64,000 nucleotides of DNA from a virus, in the IMG/VR virus record IMGVR_UViG_3300048060_000074; one strand, 5' to 3'. Below, one piece after another: positions 41,401 through 64,000 of the stretch; the first letter of the stretch is position 1; each line of letters starts with the position of its first letter. The translations under genes were made by a program, and so were the position numbers. The notes beneath the pieces were generated by a model. It saw only the letters and a program-made list of their open reading frames with translations. It was not told the DNA's origin and made no database searches.

Positions 41401-43065
41401 TTGGCAAAGTCTCTCTCCAGGCTGGTCAGCGAAGAACAGCTAGAAGAACTCAAGAAGTGCAGCCAAAGTGTCATCTATTGGCTTACCAAGTATGTCTACC
41501 TAAGACATACTACTCAGGGGAAGATTCCTTGGGACAAGCCATACCCGTACCAGGTAGAGTTTCTTGAAGCTCTAGAGCGTGGTGAGGATGTTCTGTGTTG
41601 CAAGTCCCGCCGTGTTGGGGCGTCCTGGACAGCGTGCGCGTTTGTTCTATGGCGGATTATGTTCCGCCCGGATATCACCTGCCTATTGCTGTCCAGAAAA
41701 CAAAAACTTGCCGAGGGGTTGCTCGTCAGGGTAAAGTTCATCCTGAAGCACCTGCCGGAGTGGATGCGCCCGAAGGTGGTTGCCCAGAATAAGAGTGAAA
41801 TTGTCTTTCGTTTCGTCTTTCGTGGTAACGTTGGCGAGTCAAATGTCCTCTCCCTCACCACCACTGACGACAGTGGCAGAGGCGAAGACGCCGCCGTGGT
41901 GCTAATGGACGAAGCGGCGTTTATGCAGAACGCCGACGACGTTTGGTCGGCGATTGGCCCGACGGCGGCCTTTGGCGGGCAGAGAGCAGTCATCTCGACG
42001 CCAAACGGGGTCGGTGGACTTTTCCATAGATTGGTCTCCGAGTCTCGCCTTGGGGTCGACAACGGGTTCACCTACCTTGAGGCCCATTGGAAAAGGGACT
42101 GCGGCCTTTCCGATGAGTGGTACGTTAGAGCCACGCGCGGAATGGGCCTGCTCAAGAAACAGCAGGAATTCGGCCTGGTGTTCCTGTCATCTGGCAGGCC
42201 ATTCTTTGACCTGAATGCGCTGAACCGCTGCTACAAGCCGACTAGCAGGTTTCCCGAGATTGCATCGGCGATGTGCAAAACGGCAATGAACTTTGGCGGT
42301 GTTGATACGTCGGAGGGGCATACGCTAGCCGATGGCGGCCAGCCAGATTTTCATTCGATCACCATACTCAACCAGTACGGTGTTCAGATTTATCAGTACT
42401 CGAACAACAAAATCAGCCAGAGAGAGTTCTCTGGCTACACCGAGCGACTGCCAGATGGACAGGCCGTCGAGGTGGAGAGCGTTCCAAGCAAGATACACCG
42501 GGAGTATCCAGGGATGATGGCTATCGAGCGGTGGGGGAGCGGCGATATAACCTACGCCCACCACCAGGTGCCTCTTGATGGGCGGTCGAACGTCGTAGCC
42601 CGCAGGCAGACCAACTCGTCGAAAATGTCCGGTCTAAACGCGCTTCGTCGAATGATAAACGACGATGCGATAGTGATAACGGACCAATTCACTTACCATT
42701 GCTGTACGACGTTCGAGGACCAGACTTCTGGAATCGTCCAGAAGGCTGCTGCCTCGAAGGGGTCATTCGACGACCCGGTGATCACCCTAATGCTCGCCGC
42801 GCGTGAGTGGGAGCGGTGGGGTGGCTACCAGTTCGATCTTACATCTATCGGCCAAACATCAGGGGGACAAAGAGCGGTCGGGCTGCGCCAACAGTCCGAT
42901 ATGGCGCAAGGTGATTTGGCAAAACTTTTACCAGTTGGAACAATTGCGCAGGGCCCGCTTTGGCAAGAGCGGGAACCATTCGAGCCCGGGGAAGGCAATC
43001 GGAGGTATAGCGATGACATCGACCTCGTCCGCAGAGGAAAAAAGATGCGTCCGACCGGGCTGTAG
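41401..43065 (+). CDS. terL: terminase large subunit
   Basis: KSRRVGASW Walker A, VLMDEAAF Walker B, ISTPNG, nuclease GVDTSEG and SFDDPV. Confidence 0.93.
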   Translation: MAKSLSRLVSEEQLEELKKCSQSVIYWLTKYVYLRHTTQGKIPWDKPYPYQVEFLEALERGEDVLCCKSRRVGASWTACAFVLWRIMFRPDITCLLLSRKQKLAEGLLVRVKFILKHLPEWMRPKVVAQNKSEIVFRFVFRGNVGESNVLSLTTTDDSGRGEDAAVVLMDEAAFMQNADDVWSAIGPTAAFGGQRAVISTPNGVGGLFHRLVSESRLGVDNGFTYLEAHWKRDCGLSDEWYVRATRGMGLLKKQQEFGLVFLSSGRPFFDLNALNRCYKPTSRFPEIASAMCKTAMNFGGVDTSEGHTLADGGQPDFHSITILNQYGVQIYQYSNNKISQREFSGYTERLPDGQAVEVESVPSKIHREYPGMMAIERWGSGDITYAHHQVPLDGRSNVVARRQTNSSKMSGLNALRRMINDDAIVITDQFTYHCCTTFEDQTSGIVQKAAASKGSFDDPVITLMLAAREWERWGGYQFDLTSIGQTSGGQRAVGLRQQSDMAQGDLAKLLPVGTIAQGPLWQEREPFEPGEGNRRYSDDIDLVRRGKKMRPTGL

Positions 43066-46000
43066 TCGCACTCTTAACAAGGGGAAATTGTACTGTAGTT
43101 CTACGTGCTTTGCCCTGGACAGGCCACGAAAGAAAATGTTGCGCAGCGCCGCGTCAGACATGTCCTCGGCAGTTCACGAATGGATACCGGAGGCACAGAG
43201 AAACCAGCTAGTTTCGATGGTTGGCGCTGGCCCGGCGACGGTCGTGCTTGAGGAGATCGCCTATTCTTTAGAGCAGCGCAAGCCGATAGCGGCTCCCCCG
43301 CTCGACCTGCGACGAACTCGGTCCGGGTATGCAGACGGCGACCGCTTCGGTATACTCCAGATGAGCAACGGGAGATCGTATAGGCCGGACGATTCGTTGA
43401 GCTATACGACCATCGACGACATGTTGACGAATGGGCATGTTCTCTTTGCTCTCAACATGAAGCTCGCCGGGATTCGTAGCGTACTGCGCGACGACCGTTC
43501 GTGGGTCGTGCGATGTGAGGATAAGCGAATCTCGCAGACCATTCGAGGCATCATGAACTGGGTGTTCCGTAGGTACGCAAAAGAGATGCTTCTCTCTATG
43601 GCTTATGGCGCGTCCTTCTTTGAGAAGGTCTGGACGTATAAGCCCGCTTCATACTGGGGCATCGAGGGCACGCGGGGCAAAGTCTACGGCTATGACGCAT
43701 TGCTTTCCTGCCATCCAAGGTCTATTGCCCACATCAATTACACTGATGACGGGCAGCACTTCGATGGGTTTACTCAGTCTCCGAGCGGTATTGTAGCCGG
43801 GCCAGGCACAACGCCGGTGCCGGCAGAAACCGCCCTGGTCATTACGTATGACAAGAGATGGAGGAACCTGTGGGGGAATCCTGGATTCGATCCAGTGTAC
43901 CCGTTATGGTTCTGGTTGGAGGTGACGCTGCGCTCGTTTCTGCGTTACTTGGAGCGCACTGGAACACCCGTTACTGTTTGTTACGCGCCAGGGCACGGCA
44001 ATACAATGGCGCCAGACGGGACGTTGTATGCCAACCTCAAATATGCGCAATTGGTTGCAGGGTACGTTGCAAAGTCGAACGCCATTGCCATTCCAAGCGA
44101 CGTCGACCCGGACACCAAACAGCAGCTTTGGCGGTTGGAATACCTGGCGGATGACAAGCGGGGCGATCAGTTCGTCAGAGCAATCGAGGTCTTGGGCACG
44201 CTGATTGCCAGGGCGATGATACTTGCCGACCGGGCGACGATGCAAGGCTCGGAGGTGGGGAGCTACGCGGCATCAGAGACGCACATGGCTGCCACGGTGA
44301 CACACAACGAGTTGGTGCTCGACGAGCTTTTGATCCAGGTAAACGATTATTTGGTCGAGCCGATTAGGCGGTATAACGGCACGCAGCGCACGCCTAGGGC
44401 CTGGATCGAGACCGCAACGATGGACCCGGAGGCCAGGGAGCGACTATTCAAGCTGCTATCGACAATGGGCAACCAACAGGGCAGCGATGCGATGAAGCAG
44501 GTTGACTGGGCCGCGATTATGGAGGTCATGAGGGTCCCTGTCAAGTCGCCTGAGGAAATCGAGCAGGATTTCCAGGACGAACTCAAGCACACCGAGGAGC
44601 GGAACAAAATGCTTGCCAAGTCTGCGGAACAGGGGGCAGGCGCTCCGTTTCCAAAGAAGGGACAGGGGCCAGAGGCGGAAGCCAAGCAAAAACAGGCAAC
44701 GGCGGAAAAGGTCAAGCAGTCTGCGGATTGGGCATTGTACCAGGTATCCAGCGGCGCGACTGTGCCGTTGATGGTGACTGGTGCGCAAGCACTGGAGATT
44801 GCAGATCGGTTCTCGGAGAATCCCAGCTATTTTTTTTCGAGAACGACCGACGGCTTTGATGCTCAGGTAGAACGTATCGTCGAGCAGATTATGTCTGAGG
44901 TCGAAGGCGTCGAAACAGCCAGCCCGGAGGACATTCAAAGGCTGCGAGAGCTTATCCTGCGAGAGATTGGGTTGTCTGACAGTTCGGCCAAGTTGGAATA
45001 TGACGACCTAGATTATGACGCCATCGAGCTTGCCTTGGGTGCATGGCTCAAAGAGGCTTGGAAGAAAGTCAAACAGATAGCCAGCAAGGTAGTGAAGGCG
45101 GTTACCGGCAGGACGCCGCAAGAATGGAAGAAGACTAGGGAGACAGGAAGCCGAGGCGGGGTGACGGTAACGAGAGCAGATGGAACGACTTATACGTGGA
45201 GATCTGAGGACCATCCGAGAGATGCCAGTGGGAAATTTGCAAAGAAGGCGGCGGCTGATTCAGAAGGCGGCGAGGCTGACGAGAAGGGGCTAGTTGAGGA
45301 TATTCCAGATCTCTCTGGCCCGGAGCATCCGCCAAAGCCGCCACCGCTCACCTCCCTCTTTTCAGAAGATCGGTGGGAAACGCCGAGTGAGTTTCCTGAT
45401 ATCGAGAATGCCAGCGAGGTCAGGACTATAACGGTGGATGGACTGTCGTATGCAGCCATTGGCGAGATAGACCCCGAACTGTTTGCTTCTATACACGAAA
45501 CGAGGGCGGGAATGGCCGAAAAGTCAGAAGGTCTCTATGACGGCCTTGAGCCTGTGCACCTGACAATATTGAATATGGAAGACACTGCCTCCATGGCGTC
45601 CGCTCTTGGTGTTAGCGAGGATGATGTCAGGTCTTATGTAGAAGAAACCGGCGGGCAAATGGCCGTGTTTGGAATGATGGGCGGCATCACGATTGATGAT
45701 AAGCTGGCACGTGAATCCAAGGAGATGTTTGAAGTGGTATTGTACCATGAGACATTGCATGGGCAATCTAGAGAGAACGGATCCGTGATGGCAACTTTCA
45801 CATACGATCCTGATGAAATATGGACTACATTGCTTACTATGGAATATGCCCAAAAACATGGATTGCCGGAGGTGAATGGGTACCCAACGTGGACATCCTG
45901 GGCAGTTCAAGCGGCGGACAATCTCGGATGGAGTAAGCAAAAGTTGTTTGACTATGCAGAAAGAGCGCATAGACTTGGTGGAACGGATTCCAAAGAGTTG

Positions 46001-46177
46001 GTGGGTGCTCTTTTGGAACAAGCCGACGTGAGTGGCGGCACCTCTGAGACGAGAGACCGCAGATACAAAGAATCTCTCAAAGAAATGTTCCCAGAGTGGG
46101 AAAACGATACAAAGGCACTTGCCTCTGTGTATGGAATAGACGTGGATGATTTTGTCTCCAGTCTGTGGGGTGAATAA
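43013..46177 (+). CDS. portal protein (DUF935/Mu gp29-like) fused to an N-terminal Zn finger and a C-terminal HExxH domain
   Basis: GGAGG RBS at 43001; core with NLWG...YPLWFW...FLRYLERTGTP; EDHPRDASGKF; VLYHETLHG. Confidence 0.8.
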   Translation: MTSTSSAEEKRCVRPGCSRTLNKGKLYCSSTCFALDRPRKKMLRSAASDMSSAVHEWIPEAQRNQLVSMVGAGPATVVLEEIAYSLEQRKPIAAPPLDLRRTRSGYADGDRFGILQMSNGRSYRPDDSLSYTTIDDMLTNGHVLFALNMKLAGIRSVLRDDRSWVVRCEDKRISQTIRGIMNWVFRRYAKEMLLSMAYGASFFEKVWTYKPASYWGIEGTRGKVYGYDALLSCHPRSIAHINYTDDGQHFDGFTQSPSGIVAGPGTTPVPAETALVITYDKRWRNLWGNPGFDPVYPLWFWLEVTLRSFLRYLERTGTPVTVCYAPGHGNTMAPDGTLYANLKYAQLVAGYVAKSNAIAIPSDVDPDTKQQLWRLEYLADDKRGDQFVRAIEVLGTLIARAMILADRATMQGSEVGSYAASETHMAATVTHNELVLDELLIQVNDYLVEPIRRYNGTQRTPRAWIETATMDPEARERLFKLLSTMGNQQGSDAMKQVDWAAIMEVMRVPVKSPEEIEQDFQDELKHTEERNKMLAKSAEQGAGAPFPKKGQGPEAEAKQKQATAEKVKQSADWALYQVSSGATVPLMVTGAQALEIADRFSENPSYFFSRTTDGFDAQVERIVEQIMSEVEGVETASPEDIQRLRELILREIGLSDSSAKLEYDDLDYDAIELALGAWLKEAWKKVKQIASKVVKAVTGRTPQEWKKTRETGSRGGVTVTRADGTTYTWRSEDHPRDASGKFAKKAAADSEGGEADEKGLVEDIPDLSGPEHPPKPPPLTSLFSEDRWETPSEFPDIENASEVRTITVDGLSYAAIGEIDPELFASIHETRAGMAEKSEGLYDGLEPVHLTILNMEDTASMASALGVSEDDVRSYVEETGGQMAVFGMMGGITIDDKLARESKEMFEVVLYHETLHGQSRENGSVMATFTYDPDEIWTTLLTMEYAQKHGLPEVNGYPTWTSWAVQAADNLGWSKQKLFDYAERAHRLGGTDSKELVGALLEQADVSGGTSETRDRRYKESLKEMFPEWENDTKALASVYGIDVDDFVSSLWGE

Positions 46178-47559: not shown

Positions 47560-48834
47560 ATGCGAATTTGTATCATCTTGCCGCCTGCTCCGGGTCTTTT
47601 TGACCCGCGCACCAACATTCCTCTCGGGCCCCTCTATGTTGCAGCAGTTCTTGAGCGAGCAGGGCACGAGGTTGTGTTGGTCTCTCTGTTGGGGCACGAC
47701 ATCCCGGCGAGCTGGCCCGAAGCGGATTTGTATGCGATGGGATTCACGACCCCTCAAGCCGGTGCCGCGAAGGGCATCCTGGAACTGATTCGTAGCCAAT
47801 ATCCCGATGCTAAGGTGCTGGCTGCCGGTGCGCACCCGACCGCCGAGCCAGTCCAGACCTTGCTGCTAGGGTTTGACAGCGTACTTATCGGCGAGGCGGA
47901 CGTGACGATCCTTCTGGTCCTGGACGACATGCCGGACCTTGAAAGAATTTATTACTGCGTTCCTCCTACCAATCTAGATGCCATCCCGTTTCCCGCGCGC
48001 CATTTGTTGCCTCCAGAGGATTTGCAGAATAAGGCGTCTTCGGTTTTCAGAAAGAAGTATGAAGACAGACACATCGCCGGCATTATGGGGACTCGTGGAT
48101 GCCCTGGCAAATGCGCGTTTTGTTCCAATCGCCTCAGGTCTGGAACAAGACATCGCTCGGCAATCAACATTGTCGCAGAAATGCAAGAGCTGGTCAGTCT
48201 CGGGATCACATGTTTCAAATTTCAGGACGACACATTTACCTCTAGCCCAAAGCGAGTAATATCGCTTGGTGCGGAGGCGGAAAAGGCATTCTGGCAAGGG
48301 CAGATCGCGACGCGAATAATAACCAGGGCGGATACTTTTTCGAGGAGAATCATTCCGGCCCTGAAGCAGCTAAATGTAGAGGTCGTGTCGTTTGGGATCG
48401 AGAGTGGCAGCCAGAAGGTGCTCGATATGTCGCACAAGGGCGTTAAGATCGAGCAGGTCGAGCGTACACTGAGGCTGGCCCACGGGTTTGGATTCTCGAC
48501 GTTTGGGTACTTTGTGTTTGGGCTGCCTGGCGAGTGCGAAAAGACCGTCGACGAGACTATCGAGTTCTGGAGGCGAAACAAGCCGTACTTGGATGTCGCC
48601 GTACTCTCCATTTTTGTGCCATATGCAGGGTGTGACATTGCGAGACGGCCAGACAACTACCGCATGCACATTTTAGAACGTAATTTGAATCGTTACTGGA
48701 CCACGCAGAAGAGGTCTGTCATAGCATTGCCGTACTCCGTGAGCTTTGATCGGATGATTGAGTTGAAGCAGAAGGCACTCGAAGCGTTCGTCGAGCTAGG
48801 ATATGCCAGGCCAGAATGGGAGCACGATCTATGA
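47560..48834 (+). CDS. cobalamin-dependent radical SAM enzyme
   Basis: PLGPLYVAAVL and GAHPT B12 domain; TRGCPGKCAFC; GIESGSQ; FVFGLPGE. Confidence 0.9.
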   Translation: MRICIILPPAPGLFDPRTNIPLGPLYVAAVLERAGHEVVLVSLLGHDIPASWPEADLYAMGFTTPQAGAAKGILELIRSQYPDAKVLAAGAHPTAEPVQTLLLGFDSVLIGEADVTILLVLDDMPDLERIYYCVPPTNLDAIPFPARHLLPPEDLQNKASSVFRKKYEDRHIAGIMGTRGCPGKCAFCSNRLRSGTRHRSAINIVAEMQELVSLGITCFKFQDDTFTSSPKRVISLGAEAEKAFWQGQIATRIITRADTFSRRIIPALKQLNVEVVSFGIESGSQKVLDMSHKGVKIEQVERTLRLAHGFGFSTFGYFVFGLPGECEKTVDETIEFWRRNKPYLDVAVLSIFVPYAGCDIARRPDNYRMHILERNLNRYWTTQKRSVIALPYSVSFDRMIELKQKALEAFVELGYARPEWEHDL

Positions 48835-49595
48835 AGACCCTGAAATGGTTCAGATCGAGAGGCTATCTTTATCATCCAACCATAAGTTTCGTGCTGCATA
48901 CACACAGCATGTCCGGCGCTGCGGTTCAGATAGTGGACGATCTCCGGCAGTTTTCGGATTCGGAGATCATCGTTATAGATGATGGCAGTTCACACGACCA
49001 TACGCAACGGCTGGTTGGCTATCTCAATGGCGTGAATGAGTTTGTGCTGCACGCAAATGACCTATTCGACGTGATTGTTTTTAACCGTGTCTTCGCCTTT
49101 GCTCGTGGAAAGTACATTGCTGTTATGCAGGACGACGACAAGTACAAAGGCAAGGATTGGGTAACGAGAGCAGTCGGGCATTTGGACTGGGACCCAAAAC
49201 TCGCGATTCTTGGTGGGCGAATGAGAATCACTCTTCCTAAGGATGGCAAGGCCAGGGATGAAGGCGCCGGCGTATTTCAGTATGTCCAAGCTATTAACGC
49301 TTCTCCAATGTGGATCAGGAGAGAGGCGTTTCTCGAACTTGGCGGATTCGATATAGATTTCGCGCCGATGCTATGGCACGAGCCGGCCTTTTGCCTCAAG
49401 GCTTGGTTGAGCGGATATCACGTTGGCTGGTACAAGAGTGGCATCAGGTCGTGTGCAATCCCCACACGACAGAGGCGTAATGTGAAAGAGGAGCTTACGC
49501 GTGATGCGAGAAAAAAGAACTATGAACTTTTGATGGAGAGGTACGGTGACAAGCTGGATGGCATACGAGAGTGTGTAGAGAGAATGAACCAATGA
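48831..49595 (+). CDS. GT2 glycosyltransferase
   Basis: IVIDDGSSHD, VMQDDD, FLELGGFD. Confidence 0.9.
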   Translation: MKTLKWFRSRGYLYHPTISFVLHTHSMSGAAVQIVDDLRQFSDSEIIVIDDGSSHDHTQRLVGYLNGVNEFVLHANDLFDVIVFNRVFAFARGKYIAVMQDDDKYKGKDWVTRAVGHLDWDPKLAILGGRMRITLPKDGKARDEGAGVFQYVQAINASPMWIRREAFLELGGFDIDFAPMLWHEPAFCLKAWLSGYHVGWYKSGIRSCAIPTRQRRNVKEELTRDARKKNYELLMERYGDKLDGIRECVERMNQ

Positions 49596-50386
49596 AAACT
49601 CTTGAGTGGTGGGGATCCAGGGGGCACCTTCTTCATCCCAAGGTGAGTTTCCTGCTCGAAACGCACAACTTGAGTGAGGAAACTGTCGACATAGCAAAGG
49701 GGCTGAGGCAATATCCGAATGCCGAGACCATTATTATAGACGACGGCAGTACGCACGACCACACGAAGTGCATCGCCGACGGGCTTGGCGGTGTCAATGA
49801 ATACCTTCTGCACTTCAATGACCTCTTCGTCGTGCTGACCCAGAACCGGGCGGTCAGCTTTGCACGTGGTGAGTACATCGTCAAACTCCAGGATGACGAT
49901 GTTTATCCTGGTATGGACTGGATCGAGCGGGCGCTAGTGTTGTTCGATGAGCATAAAGACCTGGCTATTATTGGAGGCAGGGGGTCCGTGAGCCTCCCGG
50001 ATGGCTGGGATTTCTCAAGGCCACTGCCCTGGAGGCCACGCTGCCCCCTCCAGTTTCAGTTCGTCTCAATGGTCAACGAGGCCCCGATGTGGATACGGCG
50101 CTCTGACTTTTTGGGGCTTGGGGGTTTCGATCAAGAGTTCGCCCCGCACTACTGGGGGGAACAAGAACTTTGCCTGAGGGCCTGGCTTTCTGGCAAGTCT
50201 GTTGGGTGGTATGACTCTGGGTGGAGACGTCGTGGTGTGGATTTACGGCGGCGCATACGGGAGAAGGAACTGCTGCACTTGGAATCCTGGCGAAAGAACA
50301 GCGCCATTTTTGCCAGAAACTTTGCAGACAAGCTGGGTTATATAAACAGGCTTGTTTGTGCAAGAAACCAGGAGGAGTATCTGTGA
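49592..50386 (+). CDS. GT2 glycosyltransferase (tandem paralog of 48831)
   Basis: IIIDDGSTHD, KLQDDD, FLGLGGFD; same MKTLxW start. Confidence 0.9.
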   Translation: MKTLEWWGSRGHLLHPKVSFLLETHNLSEETVDIAKGLRQYPNAETIIIDDGSTHDHTKCIADGLGGVNEYLLHFNDLFVVLTQNRAVSFARGEYIVKLQDDDVYPGMDWIERALVLFDEHKDLAIIGGRGSVSLPDGWDFSRPLPWRPRCPLQFQFVSMVNEAPMWIRRSDFLGLGGFDQEFAPHYWGEQELCLRAWLSGKSVGWYDSGWRRRGVDLRRRIREKELLHLESWRKNSAIFARNFADKLGYINRLVCARNQEEYL

Positions 50387-56500: not shown

Positions 56501-56706
56501 CTGAATGGCACACCGGCACAATGCTTGCCGGGGTGTTCCCAGAAGAACTAGCAGACGAGATCGAGGATCTCTATCACGACCGAAAGTTCATGCACAAGTT
56601 CGATGCTGCACAGGCCGGGATCATGGAAGACCTGCCTTGGCGAAAATCGACCGATGTTTTTGTCGGCCTGGTGGAGAAGGCGGTTGCCATATCAAGAACG
56701 ACCTGA
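53545..56706 (+). CDS. three-domain glycosyltransferase (GT2 + GT4 + GT4)
   Basis: YFVRMDDD; EHFGYTPVEAWGAGC; EGFGLPPLEAAACGVP; TTG start after GGAGG. Confidence 0.88.
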   Translation: MISNLLGHDFFALPRILVHCPTKDRDSVLGRMLASLIKQTYRNFDVVVYNDGSQQVGTTQSTDYNLACLKAGGMREVWLEEGSHISQAHNHNLALYDPAFRDYKYFVRMDDDVLLNAFALERMLNTIIRHGAAAVGGLWFENEFAAESLYDRMVAEVGIAPPLDGKCGPFNSNWQQRVYHSVDELMRVEHVYSVCIYDTEKMRQAGGWPEVYGRGVAHGEETDGTFRLHLTGEDLYINPCITGEHLRAGSGGIRSVANLQQIQAHDLRKWQIRLPDIKRINFKPTVAVECRHSYGLGGAERLFYHTVHLLQQSGKFEVVHPIFPSVHFSPDEVMDAFGFSYEDAAPLDEYDVLIVIGHEPQHITKAKHKIFYCLFPIPTVSRADLIDFDLILGISGYTAEWIREWWKYNVGYIYPPVEPIGFDPEEKENIILMVGRCVPHKNPLWLMQKFMQWKFHGWELHFVSATCIADHAAYEADVLEYAAKHDNIVVHQNISINGVEMLYRRSKILWAANGMLGKLAQQAEHFGYTPVEAWGAGCIPIVYNRGGHKETVDSPFRWSTESELLIATEISMGSFGKIDNVVDMSRFDPDEYALVWEQYIRRVNAMALELPMAEVVEVEARAPHIAMITDSPYFPEHGTGVSSGFGVVAGQIARRFLEEKYRLSILGMMDHVIPKSSQPLPFDLFPTIGDPEALRIIPMFLNWAKPYDVIFMLYDPGGLLPRIETFQNTGMAPEPVIAYFPVEGANTINASIPGLIERVHFPVVYCESAKRLIQQYVSCDEIYVAPHGIDHAKFGPPPARDRNRVRELVDWDNRFIVMAVGTNKRVKNHPVLIKAIRILMGRGYDDISLYLHTTKDPTSPYLAGWNLKSVIDQESARSGLEVARHIYMPIHDPYHGAAYKWDDLDIWRMTRPSTADERKGLFNALDFITRYQIADLYVDISGAEGFGLPPLEAAACGVPVVSIDDGMVRSEIHSKYCHMIEPDFWTEWHTGTMLAGVFPEELADEIEDLYHDRKFMHKFDAAQAGIMEDLPWRKSTDVFVGLVEKAVAISRTT

Positions 56707-56731
56707 CGAGAGCGATATTGTAGAAACTGTT

Positions 56732-56887
56732 GTGAGCACATGCAACAAGCCTGACTGGATTAGGTGCCCTTACTGCCAGCGCCGATTTGGCTATGCTGAG
56801 ACTGTACTGACGGCGATCATAGTTTTCTATTGCACCAGATGCAAAATGTCTTTTCGGTTCATCCTTGGGGTAAATGTAGAGTACTAA
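56732..56887 (+). CDS. Mu Com-like zinc-finger protein
   Basis: IRCPYCQRRF...IVFYCTRCK; start uncertain. Confidence 0.5.
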   Translation: MSTCNKPDWIRCPYCQRRFGYAETVLTAIIVFYCTRCKMSFRFILGVNVEY

Positions 56888-56919: not shown

Positions 56920-56949
56920 AGCATATAGAAGAGCCTGAAGGGGAAACCG

Positions 56950-56982
56950 AGGGGCCGCAAGATATCTTGCGGCCCCTTTTTT
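56950..56982 (+). terminator. intrinsic terminator
   Basis: 28-bp perfect palindrome AGGGGCCGCAAGATATCTTGCGGCCCCT followed by a T-run. Confidence 0.85.
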
Positions 56983-57045: not shown

Positions 57046-60000
57046 ATGATTAGGTATTACCTGGGGAGGATCAGAGATCAGGCGATGGGTGGCACCCGTG
57101 TGACACGGGCAGCCATCGCTTTGACGATGATCGATCTGTCGGGTGGGGATCGTTATCGCGCTTCAGTCCCGTTTGACTACGGTTTCGACTGGGCAGTAAT
57201 CGAGATACATGCGCCGGAAGCGACGCAGGCGTTGATTGCTGCCGAGAGCGACATGTACCCTCTGCCATTCTACGATGCGCTGGGTCAAGATTTATCCCTC
57301 GATGACACCCTGGCGGATATACCGAGCGCGGATAGAGCGACTTTCCTGACGCGGCTTGAAGAACGACGCATCCCGTGGCCCTCTCTCCCACTGATGACGA
57401 CGCTCCGCGATGCGCTTGAGACCCTCAAAAAGACCGTTCGCATTACGCAGATGATGAAAGATGCATACCTCAAAGGGTACGCACTTTCAACGACGATTGC
57501 AGGGATTCCAGTGGCGGCGCGAGATAGGGCTCAGAACTGGATGCTGGCTCGTGGTCTAAGCATTGGGTGGATCACGGGTGTGACGACGGTCAAGCAAGTC
57601 CTGCTCTACGTTCTCGACAACTTTGTCTGGGCGGCATTTGAAAATGCGAGGATAGAAGAGCGCGCGTATTTCATAAAACAGTTTGGCATGTCACCAGAAC
57701 AGATGTTCCGCATCATGGTGACGGTCTCGGATGACTTTAACAGGTCGGACGAGGACTTGGATGCCAGTTCAGACTGGAGTGAGGACACGGGCGTCTGGGC
57801 AGTTGTTAGCAATGCTGTTCAGAACACAACTGGCACCGGAGGCGACTACTGGCTCGCCCGATGGATAGGGACAAGTCTTTCTGGTTCAGATAACTTTGTC
57901 CAAGTCACTGTCGATAAGGCATCAGATAACGCCGTTGGCCCTGGGCCGGCGGTACGCAAGGCTGCGGGCACAGGTGATTCAAACAGTGATTGCTATGCCA
58001 CTGTAGCGTTCAACGATGGCTACTATCTTATAAGGCTAGATAACAGCACTGACACTACATTGGATTCCTGGGGCAACCCAGGATTTCAGCCAATAGATCT
58101 CCGTATAGAGGCTATCGGCAGCTCTATTGAGGGTTTTGTTTCTGGCACTTCGAGACTCACGGCGACAGATGCAACATACGGCTCTGGCGGCGTCGGTATG
58201 TGCTTTGGCGAGTTTGTAATTGGCGGGGACCAGACGGAATTTGACGATTGGTCGGCGGGTGACCTTGTTTCTGGAAGTGCGTCCGTGAGCCCTTCTGTGT
58301 CGCCGTCAGTTTCACCGTCGGTCTCGCCAAGCGTATCGCCGAGTGCTAGTGAGTCACCTAGCGTGAGTCCTTCGGTGAGTCCTTCAGTCTCACCGTCGAT
58401 CAGCCCGTCTGCGTCAGAATCGCCGTCCGTTTCCCCATCGGTGAGCCCGAGTGTTTCACCTTCGATCTCGCCATCGGCCTCGGAGTCCCCGTCGGTTTCG
58501 CCTTCAGTCTCGCCGTCGATCAGCCCAAGCGCAAGCGAGTCGCCATCTGTCAGTCCATCGGTGTCGCCAAGCGTGTCGCCAAGCGTGTCGCCATCAGTCA
58601 GTCCATCTGCGTCTGAATCTCCCAGTGTCTCGCCTAGCGTTTCTCCATCCGTCTCGCCATCGGCGTCCGAGTCGGCATCGGCCAGCCCTTCCGTCTCGCC
58701 ATCGGTGAGTCCGAGTGTATCGCCGTCGGTCTCGCCATCGGCGTCTGTCTCGCCGTCGATTTCCCCATCGGTCTCTCCGTCGGTCAGTCCAAGCGCGTCA
58801 GAGTCGCCGTCTGTCTCGCCCAGTATTAGCCCATCGTCTTCCGAGAGCCCGAGCGTTAGCCCAAGCGCATCTGTATCACCGTCCGTTAGCCCGAGTGTAA
58901 GTCCTTCAGTAAGCCCTTCGGTGAGCCCAAGCGTTTCACCGTCAATTAGCCCTTCGGCTTCCGAGAGTCCTTCAGTTTCTCCATCTGCATCTGTGTCGCC
59001 ATCTGCATCGGTTTCGCCTAGTGTGAGCCCTTCTATATCGCCATCCGTCTCGCCGTCGGCTTCAGTGTCACCCAGTGTCTCACCTAGCGTGTCACCGTCA
59101 GTGTCACCGAGCATATCTCCATCGGCTTCGGCGTCAGCCAGTGTGTCTCCATCGGTCTCGCCAAGTGTGTCGCCGTCGATTTCTCCATCGGCCTCGGTCT
59201 CGCCTAGTGCGGCTGGGAGCCCGAGCGCGAGTTTATCGCCCAGTGCATCCGTCTCGCCATCCGTCTCGCCATCGGTTTCTCCTAGCGTCTCGCCGTCGGT
59301 CAGTCCTAGTGCCAGTGTCAGCCCAAGCGCGAGTGTTTCGCCAAGCGTTTCTCCCTCGGCGTCGGTTTCCCCATCCGTCAGCCCGTCAGCGTCCGTCTCG
59401 CCTAGCGTGTCACCGTCTGCGAGCGTGTCACCGTCGACCAGCCCTTCTATATCACCTAGCGCCAGCGAATCTCCATCTATATCGCCGTCGGCGTCAGTCT
59501 CGCCTTCGGCCAGCGTGAGTCCTAGCATAAGCCCAAGCGCGTCGGAATCTCCGTCGGTTAGCCCGAGCGTAAGCCCTAGTGTTAGCCCTTCCGCCTCCGT
59601 CTCGCCATCGGTGAGTCCTAGCGCCAGCATCTCTCCTAGCGCGAGCGTCTCACCCAGTGCGGCGGTCAGCCCAAGCGCAAGTCTGTCGCCAAGCGCATCC
59701 GTGTCGCCTTCGGTCTCGCCGTCGGTCTCTCCTAGCGCCAGTGTGAGTCCCAGTGCCTCCGAGTCGCCATCAATCAGCCCGTCGGCTTCTGTAAGCCCAA
59801 GCGCGAGCGTTTCGCCGTCTATCAGCCCAAGCGCCTCTGTGTCACCATCGGCTAGCGAGTCGCCATCTATAAGCCCGTCGGCCAGCGTGAGTCCGTCGCT
59901 ATCTCCGAGTGCCAGTGAAAGTCCGTCCGTTTCACCATCGGCGTCAATTTCTCCTAGTGTATCGCCGTCCGTGTCCGCGTCAGAGTCGCCAAGTGTAAGC

Positions 60001-60687
60001 CCCTCGGCAAGCATATCGCCAAGCCCATCACTCGGCGATATTCCGTGGTACGAGGCAACATCTCACTCATCTAGCGTCGGCGGTATATCATCCGGAACGA
60101 TCTGGAGCACACATAACGACGATGGCGACGAGGTGGATGTAGACGAGACTACTGGCGCTCCTGGATGGGTCTACGACCTGGTCTTCGGTGAAAACGAGAG
60201 TGTCCCGACATTTAATCTATACGCGAATTTTCTGGCGTGGTATGATGGGAACATTGGACATACTGTCAAGTTGCAACAATGGAACTATACAAATACGCAG
60301 TGGGACAATGTTACGGTCGCTGCTCAGGACTTCCAGGATGAGGTGTCTGAACAGTCGTACCAGTTTACCCTGTTGGCGTCGGGTGACTATATCTCTGGTG
60401 GAGAGATTCAGCTACGTGTTAATCACTCTTCGCCAGGAAATGTAACTCACCAGTTTCATCTGAACCAAGTCTATTTGTCGCTTACTGGAAGCCCATCGCC
60501 AAGCGTCTCGCCAAGCATTAGCCCATCTGCGTCGCTTTCTCCGTCTGCATCTGTGTCGCCAAGCGCGAGCCCGTCGCCATCGCCTGCGCCAGAAGCGGTG
60601 TTTGATTTTGAATTACACGTAAAGCAGAATCAGTCGTTTGATCTGCATGTAAAGCAGGCATTTAGTTTTGATTTAGGAGTGGAATAG
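57046..60687 (+). CDS. large mucin-like Ser/Pro-repeat protein, probably virion- or surface-associated
   Basis: N-terminal helical domain, beta-sandwich-like domain (DDFNRSD...FDDWSAG), ~587-aa SPSX tract, C-terminal beta domain. Confidence 0.85.
58270..60030 (+). repeat. coding tandem repeat ([18 protein letters not shown])n with scrambled synonymous codons
   Basis: direct reading of protein and DNA; short second tract ~60487-60590. Confidence 0.95.
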
Positions 60688-60692
60688 CGCCA

Positions 60693-62234
60693 ATGCTATC
60701 TGTGCTTATCCCGTCGAGAAATGAACTGTTCCTACAGAAGACCGTCGATGATATTTTCGACAATGCTGCTGGAGATGTTGAGTGCATAGTTTCGCTCGAC
60801 GGCTACTGGCCCGACCCGCCGTTGAAAGAACATCCGAAGCTGCACGTGATACACCGTTCCAAGCCTGCCGGGATGCGTGCGGGTATCAATGCATGTGCAA
60901 CGGTGGCCCGTGGCAAGTTCATAATGAAATGTGACGCGCATTGCGCTTTCGCGGAAGGGTTCGACGAGGTGTTGCAGGCAGACTGTGATGATAACTGGGT
61001 CGTGATTCCCCGAAGATACTCGCTCAACCCGGACACCTGGGCGCCTCAGGAAAGCAGCCCTGGCGTGTGGCGAATGCCCATCGACTATGAGTTTCTGTCC
61101 TATCCGTACTGGAAAGAGGATCACTATGGCATCCACGGTACACGATGGGGAGAGCGTACCAAGCAGCGATTGAATGACCCAGAGTACGAGATCGACGATA
61201 ACATGGGCTTCCAGGGAAGCTGTTGGTTCACCACCAGGGAACATTTCCTGGAGCGTATAGGTGGCTTGCAGGAAGAGGGGTACGGGACATTCATTGGTGA
61301 GCCGCAGGAGGTGGGCAACAAAACCTGGCTTGGTGGCGGACGGCTTGTAACGAACAAAAAAACATGGTACAGCCATCTCCATAAAGGTAAGCGGTTTGGC
61401 AGGGGATACTCTGTCAGCAGGCGTGGACTGAGAGATGGCAATGTCTACTCGGTGCAGTACTGGATGACCAACGCGTGGCCTGGTAGAATTCACGACATTG
61501 AGTGGCTGGTAGAAAAGTTCTGGCCTGTACCGTCGTGGCCGGACGACAGAAGTCTTTGGAGGTTGAAGGATGAGGATCTGCCGGAATGGGCGGTGGCGGA
61601 CAAAATGAGTAAAGTAGAGATATCAGACGCCAACAGCTATATATTGAAGAAGTACAAGCCAGAGATACCGCGTCGAATGCCCATCAACTTGCCCATTGGC
61701 AGGGACGATTTGCCTGGGCTGTTCGCGGAATTGGGCTACAAGGTAGGCGCCGAGATAGGGATCGAGAGGGGTCTATACTCTGAGAAACTGTGCCAGGCTG
61801 GCCTCAGACTCTACGCGATAGACGCCTGGACAGCCTACAGCGGATATCGCGAACACGTCAGCCAGAGCAAGTTAGATAGGTTTTACAACGAGACACGGGA
61901 CAGGCTGGCCGGATATGACCACCAGCTAATTCGATGTTTCAGCATGGATGCTCTCAAGCTCATACCAGATGGGTCTTTGGATTTCGTGTACATCGACGGG
62001 AACCACGAGTTTCGACATGCGACCGACGATACCGACGGGTGGGGTAAGAAGGTCAGGGTCGGTGGTATAATAGCCGGCCACGATTTCAGGAGGAACAAGC
62101 GGAAGGCGTACCGTTGTCACGTAAAAGACGTCGTACATGCCTGGACGTACAGCCATGAGATTAGTCCGTGGTTCATTACGGGTGGAGACCGCCGCTCGAA
62201 GAGTTGGTTCTGGGTGAAGACAGCCGATGAATAG
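60693..62234 (+). CDS. GT-A glycosyltransferase (ppGalNAc-T-like motifs) fused to a class I methyltransferase
   Basis: MKCDAHC (DxH), FIGEPQEVGNKTWLGGG; C-terminal AEIGIERG, DFVYIDGNH, GGIIAGHD. Confidence 0.85.
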   Translation: MLSVLIPSRNELFLQKTVDDIFDNAAGDVECIVSLDGYWPDPPLKEHPKLHVIHRSKPAGMRAGINACATVARGKFIMKCDAHCAFAEGFDEVLQADCDDNWVVIPRRYSLNPDTWAPQESSPGVWRMPIDYEFLSYPYWKEDHYGIHGTRWGERTKQRLNDPEYEIDDNMGFQGSCWFTTREHFLERIGGLQEEGYGTFIGEPQEVGNKTWLGGGRLVTNKKTWYSHLHKGKRFGRGYSVSRRGLRDGNVYSVQYWMTNAWPGRIHDIEWLVEKFWPVPSWPDDRSLWRLKDEDLPEWAVADKMSKVEISDANSYILKKYKPEIPRRMPINLPIGRDDLPGLFAELGYKVGAEIGIERGLYSEKLCQAGLRLYAIDAWTAYSGYREHVSQSKLDRFYNETRDRLAGYDHQLIRCFSMDALKLIPDGSLDFVYIDGNHEFRHATDDTDGWGKKVRVGGIIAGHDFRRNKRKAYRCHVKDVVHAWTYSHEISPWFITGGDRRSKSWFWVKTADE

Positions 62235-63192
62235 GTGGTATCAGAACGTTCCGGTGCCGGGCGCGGTGTACGAGGGTACTGAGAGGAAGGAAAGCCGGTT
62301 CTGGAACGAAGGAAAGTGGGACAACTTCATCCAGCCATTGCTGCCAGTGGAACGCAGGACATTCATCGACATTGGCTGCAATGCCGGGCTGATGCTCAAG
62401 CTGGCGCGAGAGGCTGGTTTTCAGCGCGTGATTGGAATTGAGGGCAGCCGACGTGCGATGAAACAGGCCGAGCAGTACAGGGAGAGTGTCGGCGGTGACT
62501 GGTCACTGGTTTTACAGGTTGCAGGTGGGGGACTCGATCTGAAGCAACTTCCGTTGGCCGACGTGGTGCTGTTGAGCAACATGCACTACTATATCCCCGT
62601 GCCGGATTTTGCGAGATTGGTCGACACGCTCCGCCACAACACGTTATACTGCATCGTGGTGTCTGCGAGGGTGAAGCGACGGGGAGGCAATGCGCTCTAC
62701 GATCTTTACTCGGTCCGGGCTTATTTCCGAGACTGGATGGAGACAGGAGTGGTCGAGGGTGTGCCGGAGGAGGGCGATCCTGCCCCACGACGCGGGATGT
62801 ACGGTGTCTCATTTAAGGGAGGTCTGCATAGCCAGAATGTAGGTTCGCTCTACGGCTGGTGGCGGGGGGAATGCCTGCGATCTAAAAAGTTTCATTTCAA
62901 TGCGCTGCCAGCGGCGCTAGAGGAATTCTTCTCTCGGGTACTCTCCGGCGAGCACTTTGCTTATGAGAATACCCTGCTCTACGAGTACTGGAGGACACGG
63001 GAGCCTAACAGGCCACCAGAGAGTGCCCTGCGACGGCTTGTGCAGAAGCGTGAGTTAGCGGAAAATGTGAGGGACAACGGCATACGCGAGCCGGTCTTTT
63101 TTGACTATCGGGGGAATCTCATCGACGGACTCCACAAACTATGTATTGCGAAGCAGTTGGGCTATAAACGCATTTTGGTGAGAAGGCTATGA
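62227..63192 (+). CDS. class I methyltransferase with a C-terminal ParB/Srx-like domain
   Basis: FIDIGCNAG; GIREPV...LIDGLHKLCIAKQLG. Confidence 0.75.
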   Translation: MNRWYQNVPVPGAVYEGTERKESRFWNEGKWDNFIQPLLPVERRTFIDIGCNAGLMLKLAREAGFQRVIGIEGSRRAMKQAEQYRESVGGDWSLVLQVAGGGLDLKQLPLADVVLLSNMHYYIPVPDFARLVDTLRHNTLYCIVVSARVKRRGGNALYDLYSVRAYFRDWMETGVVEGVPEEGDPAPRRGMYGVSFKGGLHSQNVGSLYGWWRGECLRSKKFHFNALPAALEEFFSRVLSGEHFAYENTLLYEYWRTREPNRPPESALRRLVQKRELAENVRDNGIREPVFFDYRGNLIDGLHKLCIAKQLGYKRILVRRL

Positions 63193-63208
63193 TTCCAATG
63201 GCTAGGAG

Positions 63209-63490
63209 TTAGTCGTGAGTCACAACAACCCAGTCTGTGCCAAGGAGATCGCCCTCGCTGACGATCCATGTACACCACTTGTAAAATTTGGTTTTCATAT
63301 CGTAACTGATCTCCAAAAAGCTGTTGCGCAAGGCGCAGTAAATCTCGTTGTCGTTCCAGTCCAGCCTTGTTATGGACTTTCCCTCGATGACTGCCCTTAT
63401 GGCGGTTGGGAAGTCCATCAAGATCGGGGTAGGGCTTTCGCTCAGCGGGACGGCGGGCGTGGGCGACTGGGAGATTGGCTTACTGGACAT
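63209..63490 (-). CDS. DUF2829 / Tad2-like anti-defence sponge protein
   Basis: MDFPTAIRAVIEGKSITRLDWN...WIVSEGDLLGTDWVVV; AAGGAG RBS. Confidence 0.7.
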   Translation of the reverse strand: MSSKPISQSPTPAVPLSESPTPILMDFPTAIRAVIEGKSITRLDWNDNEIYCALRNSFLEISYDMKTKFYKWCTWIVSEGDLLGTDWVVVTHD

Positions 63491-63627
63491 TTCGGAAACT
63501 CCTTTTCGTGTTTTTCTTGGATTAAGGACTCGATCATAGCACGCCCGCTTATGCCGAACTTTTTGCAAAGTTCGGCGAGCATGGCCTTATGCTTATCAGA
63601 CAGGCGAAAGCTGGTCGACTTTTTCAT
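63442..63627 (-). CDS. ribbon-helix-helix regulator
   Basis: MKKSTSFRLSDKHKAMLAELCKKFGISGRAMIESLI. Confidence 0.75.
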   Translation of the reverse strand: MKKSTSFRLSDKHKAMLAELCKKFGISGRAMIESLIQEKHEKEFPKCPVSQSPSRPRPPSR

Positions 63628-63634
63628 TGGCATT

Positions 63635-63663
63635 ATTGTACCACATAATGAGCTACGTGTCAA
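63635..63663 (-). promoter_or_regulatory. sigma70 promoter of the RHH-Tad2 cassette
   Basis: TTGACA-17-TACAAT with extended TG. Confidence 0.85.
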
Positions 63664-63672
63664 GGAGACAGC

Positions 63673-64000
63673 GTGTCCACATTAGGCGTGCTTATCCCGA
63701 GCCGTAACGAGATGTTCCTCCAGAGAACTATCAAGGACATCTTGGAACATATCGAGGGAGATACGAACATCATCGCCATTCTCGACGGTGCTTGGGCAGA
63801 CCCGCCCATCGAAGACGATCCGCGAGTGATGCTGGTCTACCACCCCCAGAGCATTGGGCAGCGGGCTGCGACGAATGAGGCTGCACGGTTGTCCAGCGCA
63901 AAGTTCATAATGAAATGCGACGCTCATTGCTCGTTCGATCAAGGGTTCGACGTCAAGTTGATGGCTCACTTCGAGGATGACTGGACGGTTGTCCCAGAAA
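63673..64000 (+). CDS. second ppGalNAc-T-like GT-A glycosyltransferase (runs off the window)
   Basis: Manual translation MSTLGVLIPSRNEMFLQRTI...KFIMKCDAHCSFDQGFD; paralog of 60693; AAGGAG RBS. Confidence 0.85.
   Translation, partial: MSTLGVLIPSRNEMFLQRTIKDILEHIEGDTNIIAILDGAWADPPIEDDPRVMLVYHPQSIGQRAATNEAARLSSAKFIMKCDAHCSFDQGFDVKLMAHFEDDWTVVPE

Follow-up and report, generated by a model that had tools for sequence, protein, structure and literature searches.

A phage glycosyltransferase pair closest to eukaryotic GT27 enzymes is encoded with serine-repeat proteins

The DNA stretch analysed here (the window, 64,000 nucleotides) belongs to a metagenomic viral contig of 89,481 bp, obtained from a JGI sample (IMG/VR record IMGVR_UViG_3300048060_000074). 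Near its end lie the genes for two glycosyltransferases (GTs), called paralog 1 and paralog 2, which belong to a lineage found in phages and in bacteria of the candidate phyla radiation (CPR). Among characterised enzymes, the nearest to this lineage are those of the eukaryotic family GT27, the polypeptide N-acetylgalactosaminyltransferases (GalNAc-Ts). To our knowledge, GT27 enzymes have been treated as a eukaryotic invention of unclear origin. The lineage described here is a large uncharacterised family that is closest to GT27 in both sequence and fold and is genetically tied to Ser-repeat proteins. We lean towards a reading in which the two proteins are soluble, cytoplasmic, Mn2+-dependent enzymes of the GT-A fold, at least one of which puts the first sugar on the serines of an (S-x)n repeat, with the rest of the gene cassette and of the surrounding glycan island completing the glycan. 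The features that bear on this reading are the following.

57046–60687, plus strand: repeat protein, 1213 amino acids, presumed acceptor; its (S-x)n repeat spans 590 residues, and a second, short repeat lies close to the C terminus
60693–62234, plus strand: paralog 1, 513 amino acids; GT27-like GT-A domain (about residues 1–296) with a fused Methyltransf_24 domain (residues 354–465), an S-adenosylmethionine (SAM)-dependent O-methyltransferase
60927–60944, plus strand: KCDAHC of paralog 1, with the DxH metal motif (D81, H83)
61290–61340, plus strand: FIGEPQEVGNKTWLGGG of paralog 1, counterpart of the Gal/GalNAc-T motif WGGENLE..W.CGG by residue-wise alignment to PGANT9 and bird GalNAc-T3
61368–61385, plus strand: YSHLHK of paralog 1; H228 corresponds to the C-terminal His that is the third metal ligand of GT27 enzymes, and K231 stands at the place of the GT27 Arg
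63673–64000, plus strand: first 109 residues of paralog 2, which runs off the window end
63913–63930, plus strand: KCDAHC of paralog 2

The open reading frames (ORFs) and all motifs quoted in an earlier note on this DNA (KCDAHC in both proteins, FIGEPQEVGNKTWLGGG and YSHLHK) were found where that note had placed them. The full paralog 2 comprises 530 amino acids on the parent contig (L001:12981–14573), and the two protein families are clear paralogs of each other (hhalign E = 5e-84).

For both proteins, GT27 is a closer match to the catalytic domain than ordinary GT2 enzymes are. Three independent lines of evidence (sequence, predicted structure and diagnostic residues) agree on this, and in sequence it holds for single-sequence and family-profile comparisons alike. 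A phmmer search of all PDB chains with the single sequence of paralog 1 returned Drosophila PGANT9 as the top match (E = 0.0036). In this alignment, DAHC of paralog 1 faces DSHC of PGANT9, G-E-P-Q-E-V-G-N-K-T-W-L-G-G-G stands opposite G-E-N-L-E-L-S-F-K-T-W-M-C-G-G, and the YSHLHK His falls on that of the GHIFR segment. When family profiles are searched against the PDB, the best match is GT27 for paralog 1 (E = 7e-10, profile positions 4–256) and GalNAc-T1 for paralog 2 (E = 8.5e-11). For both paralogs, the profile alignments to GT27 run the full length of the catalytic domain, DxH and C-terminal His included, whereas GT2 chains from outside GT27 (3bcv, 5hea, 6p61, K4CP and SpsA) match on the N-terminal 90 or so residues only.

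Specifically, the DxH motifs (D81-A-H83 in paralog 1 and D83-A-H85 in paralog 2) and the later His residues (H228 and H244) align with the DxH and the GHVFR His of GT27. The Mn2+ ligands in mouse GALNT1 are D209, H211 and H344 (PMC4202792). In an alignment of 32 paralog 1 relatives, K79, D81, H83, W212, H228 and K231 are invariant and F200, E203, Q205, E206, K210, L213, G215 and G216 are nearly so; K81, D83, A84, H85, C86 and H244 are invariant in 21 paralog 2 relatives. Judged from these alignments, KCDAHC and the later His are family signatures and not chance occurrences. Replacement of DxD by DxH is confined to GT27 and GT60, which together with GT7 and the chondroitin-synthase GT2 enzymes form one clade (Taujale et al. 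2020, PMC7185993).

Pfam assigns Glycos_transf_2 (PF00535) to paralog 1 with 49.3 bits and to paralog 2 with 39.0 bits (cut-off 23.3), in both cases on the N-terminal, nucleotide-binding half only. Because the PF00535 model also covers GT27 catalytic domains, this match does not separate GT2 from GT27. Glyco_transf_7C matches paralog 2 with an E value of 0.036 only, and NCBIfam contains no family for paralog 1 and gives weak, sub-threshold matches only for paralog 2.

The predicted structures agree with the profiles. AlphaFold (AF2) models have a predicted local distance difference test score (pLDDT) of 93.4 for the paralog 1 domain and 90.5 for the full paralog 2. In a Foldseek search of the PDB with paralog 1, GT27 chains account for 50 of the 50 matches listed, and the top 30 matches among the Swiss-Prot AlphaFold models are all GALNTs. 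VIA-align, which is independent of Foldseek and was run on 48,161 representatives, matches paralog 1 to GalNAc-T1 with a Z score of 26.1 (265 residues, 2.8 Å) and to Toxoplasma GalNAc-T3 with 24.4. The next best matches from outside GT27 are WrtF (18.5), K4CP (18.0) and TarS, TarP and SpsA (around 17), and SunS, a GT2 peptide S-glycosyltransferase, scores 12.6. Paralog 2 gives similar values, with 26.6 for GalNAc-T1, 24.9 for TgGalNAc-T3 and 18.4 for the next family. Thus, the placement with GT27 over GT2 that the earlier note had proposed is borne out, since structure prediction followed by Foldseek and VIA-align yields GalNAc-Ts (Z of roughly 26 versus roughly 18) and the profiles agree.

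The two GTs are the core of a conserved cassette, in which a GT is followed by Methyltransf_24 and then by a second GT with an extra GT-like C-terminal domain. At least 364 IMG/VR viral contigs carry the cassette, and the best 80 of these at least 364 loci make up the set of related viral loci used below. Among the 80, a paralog 2-type gene is present in 64, a Methyltransf_24 gene in 65 and the C-terminal domain of paralog 2 in 62, all of them sharing one strand and usually arranged as GT, methyltransferase, GT. In a database clustered at 90% identity, relatives number 3,673 for paralog 1 and more than 5,000 for paralog 2, and an exhaustive profile search gave 424 clusters at 50% identity with E ≤ 1e-30.

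Neither GT domain was found by tblastn in 50,697 GenBank phage records, in which the methyltransferase domain alone has matches, to cyanophage and Asgard-virus methyltransferases. This absence from all deposited phage genomes explains why the family has gone unnoticed until now; literature searches turned up no account of a GT27-like enzyme from a phage or a CPR bacterium. The GTDB genome collection yielded 120 matches, all of them on contigs from metagenome-assembled genomes (MAGs) or single-amplified genomes (SAGs) and none in isolates. Many of these bins are CPR (Woesebacteria, Saccharibacteria, Paceibacterota and others), and some are Planctomycetota, Anaerolineales or ‘Gammaproteobacteria’. 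Archaeal lineages are represented among the bins of the family as well. Some contigs look cellular. For example, a 240-kb contig binned to the CPR lineage WWE3 (L238) carries the cassette and the gene of a Ser-Pro-Ser (SPS)-repeat protein next to genes for FtsX, a GtrB-like GT and a PcsB-like M23 peptidase. On a 319-kb contig (L207), the gene for ribosomal protein L1 lies upstream of the cassette and those for three tail-fibre-like paralogs lie downstream. Because the cassette occurs in such contigs, and in many without an SPS ORF nearby, the system is not restricted to phages and the acceptor is not always an adjacent SPS protein.

The presumed acceptor in the window is encoded directly upstream of paralog 1, which starts 6 nucleotides past the stop codon of the repeat gene with no terminator-like site between them. 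Over 590 residues, Ser falls on one parity in 291 of 292 cases, and the x positions are occupied by P (122), V (83), A (51), I (19) and E (15). Every one of the six Ser and four Pro codons is used in the DNA of the repeat, which contains almost no repeated 18-mers, a pattern that indicates selection on the protein. Public gene calls for the parent contig show a 642-amino-acid minus-strand ORF (58086–60014, rich in Gly, Asp, Leu and Thr) and a 184-amino-acid fragment in place of the 1213-amino-acid gene. The strict alternation of Ser, the use of six Ser codons and the presence of same-strand homologues elsewhere nevertheless establish that the plus frame is real. The earlier note had put both enzymes directly downstream of a mucin-like gene. 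This position holds for paralog 1 but not for paralog 2, which is preceded by a methyltransferase gene and an inverted Tad2-like gene, and ‘(S-x)n dipeptide repeat’ describes the tract more precisely than ‘mucin-like’ does. For the N-terminal domain of the repeat protein, neither Pfam nor PHROG gave a match, and in the Atlas it falls only into unnamed clusters.

Repeat proteins accompany the cassette well beyond this contig. ORFs rich in Ser, Thr and Pro are present in 63 of the 80 viral loci, and all 99 such ORFs lie on the GT strand, many of them abutting a GT gene. An ORF with at least ten SPS triplets occurs in 60 of the 80 and, on the same strand as the GTs, in 20 of the 21 loci that have complete 10-kb flanks. 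Globular parts of unrelated kinds, including Phage-tail_3 and a CBM96 module, carry the repeats, which also occur in small proteins of about 100 residues. The association was also tested from the repeat side: a degenerate (SPS[AV])n pattern at the DNA level retrieved 120 viral loci with flanks of about 7 kb, and the GTs were found in 16 of the 32 loci with true SPS-repeat ORFs versus none of the 88 others. Relatives of the GT4 genes of the window were not found in the 80 viral loci (BLAST E < 1e-5), so among the GTs the GT27-like pair alone keeps company with the repeats, and the case for initiation by one of the two enzymes rests chiefly on this. From the association, which in phage contigs holds in both directions, we infer that transfer to peptide Ser is well motivated as an activity of the family, and phages that carry the cassette probably sugar-coat their own particle proteins.

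We propose that, late in infection, at least one paralog would move the first sugar from a UDP-sugar to Ser hydroxyls of the adjacent 1213-amino-acid protein, with a retaining mechanism, and hence an unchanged anomeric configuration, suggested by analogy with GT27. Further sugars could be added, or a second serine context served (Ser before Pro versus Ser after Pro), by the other paralog or by the C-terminal domain of paralog 2. The methyltransferase may O-methylate a sugar as a cap, and the remaining GTs, methyltransferases, sulfotransferase and AlkP-family enzyme of the island would finish the glycan. That both enzymes are initiators, as the earlier note had it, finds no support in these data, and we judge it unlikely. 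The donor-pocket segment of GalNAc-T2, G-G-L-F, aligns with G-S-C-W and G-A-C-W in the paralogs, and because these residues differ, the donor sugar cannot be read from the alignment and GalNAc cannot be assumed. Genes of the UDP-glucose/GDP-mannose dehydrogenase family accompany the cassette in 18 loci and NAD-dependent epimerase/dehydratase genes do so in 8 (examples of these neighbours are at L077:16717–17523 and L071:6437–7375), and their presence hints at a uronic-acid-derived or pentose donor in some phages.

Several observations count against peptide-Ser transfer by these enzymes. Identity to GT27 is 16–22% only. The Gal/GalNAc-T motif region aligns and is conserved within each family, yet it has diverged from WGGENLE: paralog 1 reads F-I-G-E-P-Q-E..K-T-W-L-G-G-G, with Pro after the conserved Glu, and paralog 2 reads W-G-Q-M-G-T-E..K-S-W-L-S-G-G, without the Glu that would align to the first Glu of WGGENLE. 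The sister families of GT27, namely GT7 and the GT2 chondroitin-synthase group, use sugar acceptors (PMC7185993). No known structural family is matched by the globular parts of the repeat protein, and its presumed place in the virion is therefore taken from gene position only. Among MAG loci, where the cassette is likewise conserved, an SPS-repeat ORF lies within 10 kb in 18 of 77 (12 of the 33 with complete flanks), and the link to SPS repeats is thus not universal. Finally, for every family member peptide-Ser activity is a prediction. In a tree of 157 family members, the SPS association is somewhat clustered but scattered (33 changes versus at least 40 in shuffles); many of the ‘absent’ states are truncated contigs, and for this reason we conclude nothing from it.

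Some of these points would fit a pathway in which another enzyme, for example a GT4 as in the serine-rich repeat protein (SRRP) systems, starts the glycan on Ser and the GT27-like paralogs extend it by using sugar acceptors. SRRP-type (S-x)n repeats are GT4-started, and a 321-amino-acid GT4 and a GT2-GT4-GT4 fusion are encoded in the same island. Such a role would also suit the sugar acceptors of the GT7 and chondroitin-synthase sisters, the preference of some GT27 isoforms for glycopeptides (as in the glycopeptide structures of GalNAc-T4, T10 and T12) and the Glu that paralog 2 lacks. However, relatives of the GT4 genes of the window occur in none of the 80 viral loci at the BLAST threshold given above and SPS-repeat ORFs in 60, which leaves the two GT27-like families as the sole consistent GT companions of repeats on which some enzyme must initiate. 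We therefore regard an extending role for both paralogs as rather unlikely, although it deserves more weight than the two explanations that follow.

The cassette could instead modify a polysaccharide or lipid of the host envelope (for serotype conversion or superinfection exclusion) or a bacterial surface polymer, in which case its proximity to Ser repeats would simply reflect shared late or structural modules. The absence of a membrane segment or signal peptide at the N termini, a conserved core without flippase or polymerase, the two-way SPS association in viral contigs (20 of 21; 16 of 32 versus 0 of 88) and closest structural relatives that are peptide-acceptor enzymes, by about 8 Z units, all speak against this, and we hold it to be improbable. 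It would account for the Glycos_transf_2 assignment that is all Pfam gives, for public annotations as ‘cell wall biosynthesis’, for the many MAG cassettes (most of them) that have no SPS-repeat ORF within 10 kb, for the FtsX, PcsB-like peptidase and GtrB-like GT genes next to the cassette on the 240-kb WWE3 contig and for the UDP-glucose dehydrogenase and epimerase genes at some loci. There is very little chance that the paralogs are ordinary GT2 enzymes that resemble GT27 through shared GT-A architecture and a chance DxH, even though identity is 16–22%, profile E values are only 1e-9 to 1e-11 and PF00535 is the sole Pfam match. Alignment over the whole domain, including the C-terminal half, is obtained for GT27 chains only; both independently modelled paralogs score about 26 versus 18 in Z; the top Foldseek matches in the PDB and Swiss-Prot are all GT27; neither DxH nor the C-terminal His varies within the two families; and the other GT2 genes of the window keep DxD.

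The phage enzymes resemble GT27 GalNAc-Ts in their GT-A domain, their DxH and C-terminal His ligands, a recognisable though diverged Gal/GalNAc-T region, the best profile and fold match (Z of 24–27) and an association with Pro-containing, Ser-rich repeat acceptors. The motif itself differs (WGGENLE in GT27, FIGEPQE in paralog 1 and WGQMGTE in paralog 2), as does the status of the activity, which for the phage enzymes is predicted only. GT27 enzymes also carry a ricin-type lectin domain and a membrane anchor with a stem. No match to a ricin-type lectin domain was found in either paralog; paralog 1 has Methyltransf_24 instead, and paralog 2 has an α/β domain with an invariant E-H-D. Because the GT27 alignment begins at residue 1–4 of both paralogs, there is no room for a signal peptide, anchor or stem. 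The type II membrane topology of GT27 is thus absent as judged by the alignment start, with no dedicated transmembrane predictor having been run, and enzymes without anchor or lectin domain would be cytoplasmic.

The best PDB match of the paralog 1 methyltransferase domain is 6g7d, which we take to be a mycobacterial mannoside O-methyltransferase. This domain is also the sole match in PHROGs, under the name ‘DNA methyltransferase’, which we judge uninformative. In most relatives, the methyltransferase is encoded by a separate gene directly after the GT gene, and GT-methyltransferase fusions are frequent, an arrangement that points to functional coupling rather than to replacement of a lectin domain. 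The earlier remark that a methyltransferase occupies the lectin position is accordingly apt as a description of the topology of paralog 1, but the domain is there by gene fusion rather than as a substitute, and paralog 2 has a different C-terminal domain.

Paralog 2 consists of a GT27-like domain with a four-Cys zinc-ribbon insert, followed by a second GT-like domain, and GT27 enzymes have neither of these additions. The insert covers residues 119–160 or so (L001:13335–13460), with C120, C136 and C139 invariant and C123 nearly so, and has weak similarity to ribosomal protein eL37. Some public annotations name the whole paralog 2-type protein ‘ribosomal protein L37E’. The C-terminal domain is an α/β unit of about 235 residues with the invariant E-H-D after a β-strand, and it looks like a second GT-A-type active site. 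A sequence search of the PDB gave no match to it, its profile does not match that of the GT27-like domain, and its Atlas feature matches (GT92, WavE and DUF4422 clusters, 0.84–0.85) are leads only.

The polypeptide α-N-acetylglucosaminyltransferases of GT60 (Dictyostelium, Trypanosoma and prokaryotic members) share DxH with the phage enzymes, and peptide Ser, Thr or hydroxyproline is a known acceptor for that family. GT60 also includes cytoplasmic enzymes and occurs in prokaryotes, and proteins named ‘Glycosyltransferase, GlcNAc’ are found in uncultured phages. As its prokaryotic members make it an evident alternative family, GT60 was compared with the paralogs. Its Pfam model PF11397 is absent from the results for both paralogs at E values up to 0.1, and the phage proteins so named match the predicted structure less well (TMq 0.57–0.64, identity 12–17%) than GT27 does (0.62–0.72, 16–22%); a distant relation may exist. 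The Swiss-Prot structural top 30 includes no GT60 member, and no solved GT60 structure turned up.

In acceptor design, the SRRP system is the closest bacterial analogue. The (S-x)n repeats of SRRPs in Gram-positive bacteria are started by the GT4 enzymes GtfA/B. As in the window, the acceptor in SRRP adhesins extends over hundreds of residues with Ser at every second position, and glycosylation takes place in the cytoplasm, by soluble GTs that are encoded beside the acceptor gene. The SRRP systems differ in that GtfA/B are GT-B-fold enzymes and export proceeds by accessory Sec, whereas the enzymes here are GT27-like and of the GT-A fold, x is mostly Pro, Val or Ala, and the genes form a phage late-gene module. 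No GtfA/GtfB pair accompanies the conserved cassette, which contains no GT4, and no SecA2/SecY2-like genes were seen.

Among viruses, the chlorovirus PBCV-1 protein A064R is a GT-GT-methyltransferase that decorates the virus's own structural proteins. A064R and the glycosylation of mycobacteriophage virions are the closest viral analogues, in that GTs of the virus (joined by a sugar methyltransferase in A064R) act on its own structural proteins and no host secretory pathway is involved. Both differ from the system described here in their acceptors, which are short C-terminal tails or N-linked sites, and in having no detectable sequence relation to it. For mycobacteriophages, virion glycosylation is described by Freeman et al. 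(2023), as cited in PMC12619734.

A more far-reaching proposal is that these are true polypeptide-Ser O-GTs of a prokaryotic and viral sister lineage of GT27, and hence the first mucin-type O-glycosylation outside eukaryotes. Many uncultured phages and some CPR bacteria would then coat (S-x)n fibres of the virion or cell surface with methylated glycans, and the lineage would be a candidate prokaryotic root of the mucin-initiating enzymes. We put this forward tentatively, as a possibility that is on present evidence doubtful when taken as a whole. Should the enzymes indeed put sugars on the repeats, phages would possess mucin-like or SRRP-like coats of their own, with a bearing on adsorption, particle stability and evasion of recognition by hosts or grazers. 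Soluble, cytoplasmic, lectin-free GalNAc-T-like enzymes would also be useful tools for making O-glycoproteins in bacteria, and ideas on how mucin-type glycosylation evolved could be put to the test.

The cassette is part of a plus-strand island of about 17 kb that lies between the portal and head genes, the latter (a lambda-D-like decoration protein gene and an E-type major capsid protein gene) being located just past the window end on the parent contig. The island opens with a sulfotransferase, a B12 radical-SAM enzyme and two DxD GT2 enzymes; continues with an AlkP/sulfatase-family enzyme, two methyltransferases, the 321-amino-acid GT4 and the GT2-GT4-GT4 fusion; and ends with the 1213-amino-acid repeat protein, paralog 1, a methyltransferase, the inverted Tad2-like gene and paralog 2. 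No tRNA genes were found in the window. The flanking and intervening features not given above are as follows.

From 41401: large terminase gene
42803–46177, plus strand: Mu-type portal gene, 1124 amino acids, with a Portal_Mu match on residues 204–557 only
62227–63192, plus strand: separate class I SAM methyltransferase between the paralogs, 321 amino acids; Pfam Methyltransf_23 and related families
63209–63568, minus strand: Tad2-like (DUF2829) gene inside the cassette; Pfam PF11195, E = 1e-10

The portal ORF is about twice the usual length. Relatives of the separate SAM methyltransferase occur in 3 of the 80 related viral loci. The inverted Tad2-like gene has no part in the glycosylation function; such genes occur in 17 of the 80 loci and, in the loci inspected, lie in or beside the cassette, on either strand and often separating the methyltransferase from the second GT. 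ORFs for HNH/AP2 homing endonucleases lie in the cassette region of 11 loci (for example, L048:13185–13637), and the closest AlphaFold DB cluster representative, A0A1F7YW97, is a 1181-amino-acid family member whose entry takes its name from a DOD-type homing endonuclease domain, which may be an intein. These signs of homing endonucleases suggest that the cassette genes may be targets of selfish elements.

The two GT2 genes early in the island (48816–49595 and 49571–50386, both on the plus strand) are paralogs that retain DxD (QDDD). Their Gal/GalNAc-T-like segments read W-G-E-Q-E-L-C-L-R-A-W-L-S-G and W-H-E-P-A-F-C-L-K-A-W-L-S-G, respectively, and the enzymes possibly belong to the same GT-A clade, as GT7-like or chondroitin-synthase-like members. 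Immediately 5′ of the repeat gene lies a small Cys-rich ORF (56603–56887, plus strand, 94 amino acids) with weak zinc-ribbon matches, and this ORF is followed on its 3′ side by a strong promoter-like site (56891) and a terminator-like hairpin with a 13-bp stem (56949–56978).

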